Positions 2,337-2,494 of a stretch of 64,000 nt of DNA are shown here, piece by piece. A model generated the notes under the pieces. That model did no database searches, had not been told where the DNA came from, and saw only the letters and a program-made list of their open reading frames with translations. The number at the start of each line of letters is the position of its first letter. Position 1 is the first letter of the stretch. Location: NCBI RefSeq assembly GCF_003018255.1, contig NZ_CP027440.1; one strand, 5' to 3'. This DNA is from Escherichia coli. Lineage in GTDB: Bacteria > Pseudomonadota > Gammaproteobacteria > Enterobacterales > Enterobacteriaceae. The position numbers and the translations under genes are program-made.

Positions 2337-2384
2337 TCAATACCTCTGTAAGTCGCACATAGAGTAAGTTTCGAATGCACAATA

Positions 2385-2400
2385 GCGTACACTTGTACGC
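2385..2400. promoter_or_regulatory. Inverted repeat GCGTACA-N2-TGTACGC in fabB upstream region, candidate FabR operator
   Basis: Palindromic arms read directly in the fabB-mnmC divergent intergenic region; matches recalled FabR operator position at fabB. Confidence 0.5.
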
Positions 2401-2494
2401 CGAACAAGTCCGATCAGCCAATTAATAGAGAAATTTGCGCAGCCTGACACACATCGTTAAGATCGTCAGACTGCCCGTCAGACGAGTAACTTAC

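Follow-up and report, generated by a model that had tools for sequence, protein, structure and literature searches.

The palindrome upstream of Escherichia coli fabB is very probably the known operator of the repressor FabR and is conserved across Enterobacterales

The DNA analysed here, referred to as the window, is a stretch of 64,000 nucleotides from an Escherichia coli contig (NZ_CP027440.1). Near one end of it, fabB, which encodes beta-ketoacyl-ACP synthase I, and mnmC are transcribed in opposite directions from a shared intergenic region. FabB is the rate-limiting step for the synthesis of unsaturated fatty acids. The part of the window from 2000 to 2900, in which this intergenic region lies, matched in 5425 of 5426 complete E. 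coli genomes, with 100% identity in several of them, such as strain 104. The fabR gene lies outside the 64-kb window and was found, at the species level, in 5424 of the 5426 complete genomes. The features of the locus are listed in Table 1. In the earlier note, a divergent fabB/mnmC region had been placed at 2337–2434; the divergence holds, while the extent had to be enlarged, given that mnmC starts in the RefSeq annotation at the GTG at 2495 and that the TTG at 2435 is merely the mechanical start of its open reading frame. For the transcription start of fabB, the published position was converted into a window coordinate by use of the CpxR-box numbering in PMC7083825, which reproduces the sequence at 2448–2434.

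Table 1. Coordinates of the features at the fabB–mnmC locus of the window
Feature	Position in window	Strand	Relative position	Basis
fabB CDS (beta-ketoacyl-ACP synthase I), regulated gene, 406 aa	1116–2336	minus		ORF list; RefSeq entry for strain 104 (100% identical)
mnmC CDS, divergent neighbour, GTG start	2495–4501	plus		start, RefSeq annotation; end, ORF list
fabB–mnmC intergenic region (158 bp)	2337–2494			RefSeq gene bounds
Perfect 7+2+7 repeat, core of the assigned FabR operator	2385–2400			inverted-repeat search
FabR box, 18 bp, GGCGTACAAGTGTACGCT	2401→2384	minus	−28 to −11 from fabB start site	literature delimitation
FadR activator box, GGCTGATCGGACTTGTT	2419–2403	minus	−46 to −30 from fabB start site	FadR site marked in PMC4537474 probes
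Putative −35 hexamer, TTGTTC	2407–2402	minus	−34 to −29 from fabB start site	17 nt upstream of TATTGT; overlaps end of FadR box
Putative −10 hexamer, TATTGT	2384–2379	minus	−11 to −6 from fabB start site	5 nt upstream of mapped start site
fabB transcription start	2373	minus		37 bp upstream of ATG, RACE (PMC7083825)
CpxR box	2448–2434	minus	−112 to −98 from ATG	Table 1 and DNase I footprint of PMC7083825

An inverted repeat, GCGTACACTTGTACGC, occupies the middle of this set of features. Its two arms of 7 nt (2385–2391 and 2394–2400) are 100% complementary and enclose the dinucleotide CT, in agreement with the clean inverted repeat described in the earlier note, and the near edge of the palindrome lies 48 nt from the fabB ATG, close to the distance of about 50 bp given there. 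No other exact match to the palindrome was detected in the 64-kb window. Perfect inverted repeats of the 7+2+7 form were found six times in the window, compared with 4.1 ± 2.1 expected from Markov-1 random sequences. The bare symmetry is no rarer than chance in 64 kb, and the statistical prominence that the earlier note had implicitly attached to it was lost. A scan of the window with the degenerate pattern GCGTACANNTGTACGC, allowing up to three mismatches, yielded two matches against 2.6 expected; this showed no excess and was uninformative. The palindrome owes its significance to its base content, location and conservation, and symmetry plays no part in it.

As to base content, the 18-mer GGCGTACAAGTGTACGCT is marked as the predicted FabR palindrome in the fabB_ec EMSA probe of PMC4537474, and in the fabB_ec-BD probe of the same study, the marked palindrome coincides base for base with the window at 2384–2401. 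Over the longer interval of 2373–2429, the window differs from the fabB_ec probe by one base (2421), which lies outside both the FabR and FadR boxes. The published FabR motif is AGCGTACACGTGTTCGCT, with the half-site AGC[G/T][T/A]ACA (motif quoted in PMC4273635). The fabB 18-mer matched this motif at 15 of 18 positions, and both half-sites fit.

The FabR box, the FadR box, the 1-nt spacing between them, the −10 hexamer and the 5′ UTR were base-for-base identical to those of E. coli K-12 fabB. The differences from K-12 were the T at 2421 (A in K-12), just upstream of the FadR box, the C at 2446 on the minus strand (A in K-12), in the distal half-site of the CpxR box, and a cluster of substitutions at 2459–2481 near mnmC. 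We take the K-12 element to be the FabR (YijC) operator described by McCue 2001, Zhang 2002, Zhu 2009 and Feng & Cronan 2011. The FabR operator of fabB is already characterised and belongs to textbook regulation; it is no discovery of this study.

We compared the fabB promoter with the E. coli K-12 promoter of fabA. The two promoters share an ungapped block of 36 nt with 32 identical positions, compared with a maximum of 26 of 36 among shuffled sequences (n=300). This block contains, in the same order and register, the FadR box (15/17 identical), the spacer base C, the FabR box (14/18) and the start of the −10 element, in which TA is common to both. Taken alone, the FabR 18-mer is a marginal match to fabA, and shuffled sequences reach a best 18-mer of 15/18; the likeness of fabA and fabB is decisive because of the register shared with the FadR box, and the argument is carried by conservation as well. 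In the fabA operator, AGCGTACACGTGTTAGCT, the −10 element also begins with the last T of the FabR box. Unlike the perfect core of fabB, however, the palindrome of the fabA box is imperfect (its right-hand side reads TGTTAGCT), and its central dinucleotide is CG instead of AG. The fabA promoter also differs in having additional start sites (PMC7083825) and in its location inside the 3′ end of ycbZ. The box of E. coli trhA (yqfA), AGCTAACAGGTGTTCACT, has the same 18-bp dyad and ACA-NN-TGT core, but its half-sites are more degenerate than those of fabB; mutation of this box has demonstrated FabR-dependent repression of trhA (PMC9017321).

A leave-one-out symmetric matrix, made of the half-sites of fabA and trhA only and with fabB excluded, ranked 2384–2401 first in the 64-kb window with 16.1 bits, the next site scoring 11.0 bits. 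A score of 16.1 bits was reached anywhere in 6 of 200 random 64-kb sequences. The site in second place, AGGGTACACCTGTTTCCC, is located at 2541–2558 inside mnmC, approximately 140 bp from the operator. This FabR-like 18-mer is probably due to chance, because its 11.0 bits fall below the mean best score of a random 64-kb sequence (12.8 bits).

The earlier note had regarded the palindrome as consistent with the known FabR operator, had set the comparison with the fabA FabR site beforehand as the refuting test and had called for a motif scan. The similarity to fabA was present over the 36 nt, the 18-mer came first in the window with the fabA and trhA matrix, and the box, besides being identical to the site in PMC4537474, is conserved in 79 of 80 loci, all in support of that proposal. 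Based on the identity to the published site, the similarity to fabA and trhA, the position relative to the published start and the deep conservation observed in this analysis, we assign the palindrome with high confidence to the TetR-family repressor FabR (YijC), as its operator in the promoter of E. coli fabB.

With transcription starting 37 bp before the ATG, the FabR box extends from −28 to −11. This published start, together with conservation, served to position the −35 and −10 hexamers. The two putative hexamers are 17 nt apart, a spacer made up of the palindrome plus one base, and the T that ends the FabR box is also the first T of the putative −10 hexamer TATTGT. A consensus promoter and terminator scan of 2250–2560 called nothing; the putative fabB −35 hexamer is missed by the scan because it is weak, with a 3/6 match to the consensus, and the putative −10 hexamer is weak as well. 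Weak −35 hexamers typify activator-dependent promoters. A TAnnnT pattern directly after the FabR box was held across species, in forms such as TATTGT, TATCTT, TAAAGT and TAGAGT. The location of the FabR box between the putative −35 and −10 hexamers is compatible with repression.

The FadR box and the FabR box are separated by a single base, C2402. We take the operator consensus of FadR to be the 17-bp sequence ANCTGGTCNGACNTGTT. The palindrome itself was also considered as a FadR operator and was rejected in this role, the FadR box being the neighbouring element at 2419–2403.

The conservation of the region was analysed across genera, because the alignment within E. coli was too similar (98%) for a footprint. 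Species-representative genomes with FabB provided 80 Enterobacterales loci with upstream DNA, and the 8-mers of the window were sought, free of any alignment, within 220 nt upstream of fabB in the 79 other species. A single continuous block was detected at approximately 2420–2383, over most of which the 8-mers were exact in 53–72 of the 79 species, and the rest of the intergenic region was variable. The 8-mers of the FadR box were exact in 69–72 of the 79. With a matrix score above 12 bits as the definition of a FabR-type box, such a box was present upstream of fabB in 79 of the 80 loci, mostly ending 40–52 nt from the ATG, and its flanks diverged. It was adjoined by a FadR box (0–2 mismatches in the 12-nt core) in 76 of the 80 loci, with a spacing of 1 nt in about 74 of the 80 fabB promoters and of 2 nt in Edwardsiella. 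Among Escherichia, Citrobacter, Salmonella, Klebsiella, Enterobacter and Superficieibacter, a 39-nt stretch, CTGATCGG...GCTATTGTGC, was identical, with divergence on both flanks. Within the sampled E. coli, variants of the 45-nt core were located only upstream of the FadR box or at its position 2, and both the FabR box and the −10 hexamer were without variation.

Altogether, 18 distinct variants of the FabR box were observed. Invariant among these were G2, T5, A6, C7, A8, T11, G12, T13, G16, C17 and T18 (11 of 18 positions), and the variation affected the central dinucleotide (positions 9 and 10), position 1, position 4 (G or T) and position 15 (C or A). Positions 4 and 15 correspond across the dyad, as would be expected of the half-sites of a dimer. 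The FabR box was kept without a FadR box in Rosenbergiella, Ca. Schmidhempelia and Alkalimonas; in the first two of these, TTGTTC still precedes the FabR box and a TAnnnT hexamer follows it.

This pattern bears directly on whether the palindrome could be a chance repeat without a function of its own, conserved by virtue of the overlapping core promoter and FadR box alone. Such an origin would agree with the chance rate of 7+2+7 palindromes in the window, and the element does overlap the promoter spacer and the −10 hexamer, which are themselves constrained. Promoter spacers normally vary freely, yet 11 of the 18 positions were invariant across 79 species, and the variation that did occur was mostly at the symmetric partners 4 and 15. 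The survival of the box after loss of the FadR box and the recurrence of the motif at fabA and trhA also argue against chance. This explanation is effectively refuted by the conservation pattern, and we give it hardly any credence.

The sole locus without a FabR-type box among the 80 was that of Ca. Gullanella endobia, a reduced endosymbiont, in which the FadR and FabR boxes are both recognisably decayed (TTATAATCAGACTTGTT t ATCTTATGTTTTTAAACT). Such decay is consistent with regulation having been lost from the reduced genome of this endosymbiont. As modest additions to the known operator, this analysis provides the footprint over 80 species with its invariant positions (G2, TACA, TGT and GCT), and, further, the persistence of the box beyond loss of the FadR box and its decay in one reduced endosymbiont.

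A palindrome could also act as a structural nucleic-acid element, that is, as an RNA hairpin, a terminator or a DNA cruciform, and not as a binding site for a protein. The two arms can pair, and the energies predicted for the hairpins were −8.4 kcal/mol (plus strand) and −10 kcal/mol (minus strand). However, the element lies upstream of both the fabB start at 2373 and the putative mnmC promoter, so that it is expected to be absent from both mRNAs. It has no T-run, no terminator was called in 2250–2560, the fold z-scores of −1.9 and −1.2 were unremarkable, no Rfam match was detected at E ≤ 1, and a 7-bp stem is not closable by a loop of 2 nt. In addition, the changes across species preserve the DNA dyad symmetry at the scale of a binding site. 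With this weight of evidence for a protein-binding site, a structural element appears exceedingly improbable.

The core TACA-NN-TGTA of the FabR box also occurs elsewhere in the window, in the unrelated palindrome TTCTTACAACTGTAAGAA (45635–45654) upstream of frc. Located between yfdX (45897–46529, minus) and frc/yfdW (44134–45384, minus), this palindrome is perfect in the form 8+2+8, and its core has TTC/GAA flanks. TTCTTACAACTGTAAGAA fits the inverted repeat of EvgA, the consensus of which we take to be TTCYTACA. A second perfect palindrome, ACGCTTTTTAAAGCGT, is located at 45685–45700, 31 nt beyond TTCTTACAACTGTAAGAA.

The shared core raises the question of whether some further regulator that recognizes TACA-NN-TGTA acts at the fabB operator, either alongside FabR or as its main user. 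EvgA binds inverted repeats that precede yfdX and yfdWUVE (PMC3720670), and the FabR core obtained by ChIP in Salmonella, ACAnnTGTnnnnT, is degenerate (PMC4804515), both of which would leave room for such a regulator. The flanks that distinguish the two palindromes, GC...GC at fabB and TTC...GAA at frc, are nevertheless invariant in the fabB orthologues, and the frc palindrome was outside the top 12 sites of the leave-one-out FabR matrix. Furthermore, the FabR dependence of fabB expression has been published (PMC4804515, PMC11525553, PMC9017321). We consider use by another regulator, for which no support emerged, highly unlikely.

For FabR binding, repression and ligand dependence, we rely on the literature. 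ChIP and transcriptome analysis in Salmonella indicated the presence of FabR at the fabB promoter in vivo and the derepression of fabB in the fabR mutant; in this organism, FabR represses fabA, fabB and yqfA and occupies all their promoters in vivo (PMC4804515). The expression of a fabB reporter was increased in a fabR deletion (PMC9017321), and acyl-ACP competition is involved in FabR control (PMC11525553). The Klebsiella FabR paper PMC11481535 is without site information. According to work relayed in PMC4804515, sequences flanking the palindrome matter for the binding of ligand-free FabR, suggesting that the palindrome may be only a part of the FabR-binding determinant.

In the mechanism that we propose, a FabR dimer would bind the two-fold symmetric 18-bp box. 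Bound FabR would fill the 17 nt that separate the −35 from the −10 hexamer, together with the first base of the latter, and RNA polymerase would be excluded, probably through steric occlusion, with a decrease in fabB transcription. As described in published work, unsaturated acyl-ACP or acyl-CoA on FabR would strengthen repression and saturated acyl-ACP would relieve it; the output of fabB, and with it the unsaturated:saturated ratio of the membrane lipids, would thereby be fed back on the acyl pool. The FabR box, the FadR box one base upstream and the CpxR box further upstream would together form a compact three-input promoter. As is established, the operator is one of the inputs that set the unsaturated:saturated fatty-acid ratio of the E. 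coli membrane (homeoviscous adaptation).

We take DesT of Pseudomonas aeruginosa to be a TetR-family repressor of fatty-acid desaturase genes and, like FabR, a TetR-family dimer that senses the saturation state of acyl chains and binds to a palindromic operator. DesT was the nearest solved relative of FabR (PDB 3LSJ/3LSP/3LSR, E = 7e-30). The comparison was made at the protein level; the two systems differ in organism, targets (desCB and desT for DesT) and operator sequence. FabR sites of the same motif family as that of fabB are found in Shewanella oneidensis, namely, the fabA box AGCTTACACGTGTTCGCT and the desA-associated AGCTTACAGCTGTACGCT (PMC4537474, PMC4273635), and the Shewanella fabA site likewise follows a FadR box (PMC4537474). 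In contrast to E. coli, however, only fabA, and not fabB, is under the control of FadR and FabR in Shewanella (PMC4537474), where FabR also controls the desaturase gene desA.

At fabA as well as at fabB, the FadR and FabR boxes stand a fixed 1 nt apart. This spacing, together with the shared −35 hexamer and, in fabB only, an inverted repeat that bridges the two boxes, is in line with one obligate composite module of the FabR and FadR sites rather than two independent sites. These composite features could reflect a direct contact between FabR and FadR or an enforced competition on DNA. The spacing may also be set simply by the geometry of the promoter, and we consider an obligate module unlikely.

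This additional inverted repeat, ACTTGTACG / CGAACAAGT (2391–2399 / 2401–2409, 8/9 complementary), was observed across the junction of the two sites. It joins the promoter-distal half of the FabR box (the right half on the plus strand) to the adjacent end of the FadR box. This repeat needs the fabB-specific central AAG, and it is present in fabB only and absent from fabA. It is likely to be a by-product of the ACTTGT/ACAAGT that is common to both motifs.

Immediately ahead of the start codon, the 9-mer CTTACAGAG occurs in the 5′ UTRs of both fabA and fabB (2345–2353 on the minus strand in fabB), within the context ...GGCTTACAGAGAACATG in K-12 fabA and ...GACTTACAGAGGTATTGAATG in fabB. Close genera retain the 9-mer, which overlaps the probable ribosome-binding site. 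It may represent Shine-Dalgarno context only, or it could contribute a further, post-transcriptional level of control.

Upstream of the FadR box, the CpxR box reads GTCAGgctgcGCAAA in the window and GTAAGgctgcGCAAA in K-12. The A-to-C change at 2446 gives GTCAG in the distal half-site instead of the GTAAG of K-12, and among four other aligned E. coli strains, the C at 2446 was shared only by EBJ003. The proximal part of the CpxR box, GCAAATTT, was exact in 63 of the 79 species. The plus strand of this region (2431–2440) carries TTGCGC at 2435–2440, and a conserved TAAGAT follows 17 nt later at 2458–2463. Judged from sequence and spacing, the two hexamers form a plausible −35/−10 pair for mnmC; this pair was not called by the consensus promoter scan.

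The fabB–mnmC intergenic region of the window is a minority allele, with an identity of at least 99% in 79 of 5425 genomes and of 90–95% in 5318. Near mnmC, approximately nine of the substitutions relative to K-12 are gathered within about 25 nt (2459–2481), a stretch that is variable across genera. The substitutions on this side create a direct repeat, with two copies of CGTCAGAC at 2464–2471 and 2476–2483.
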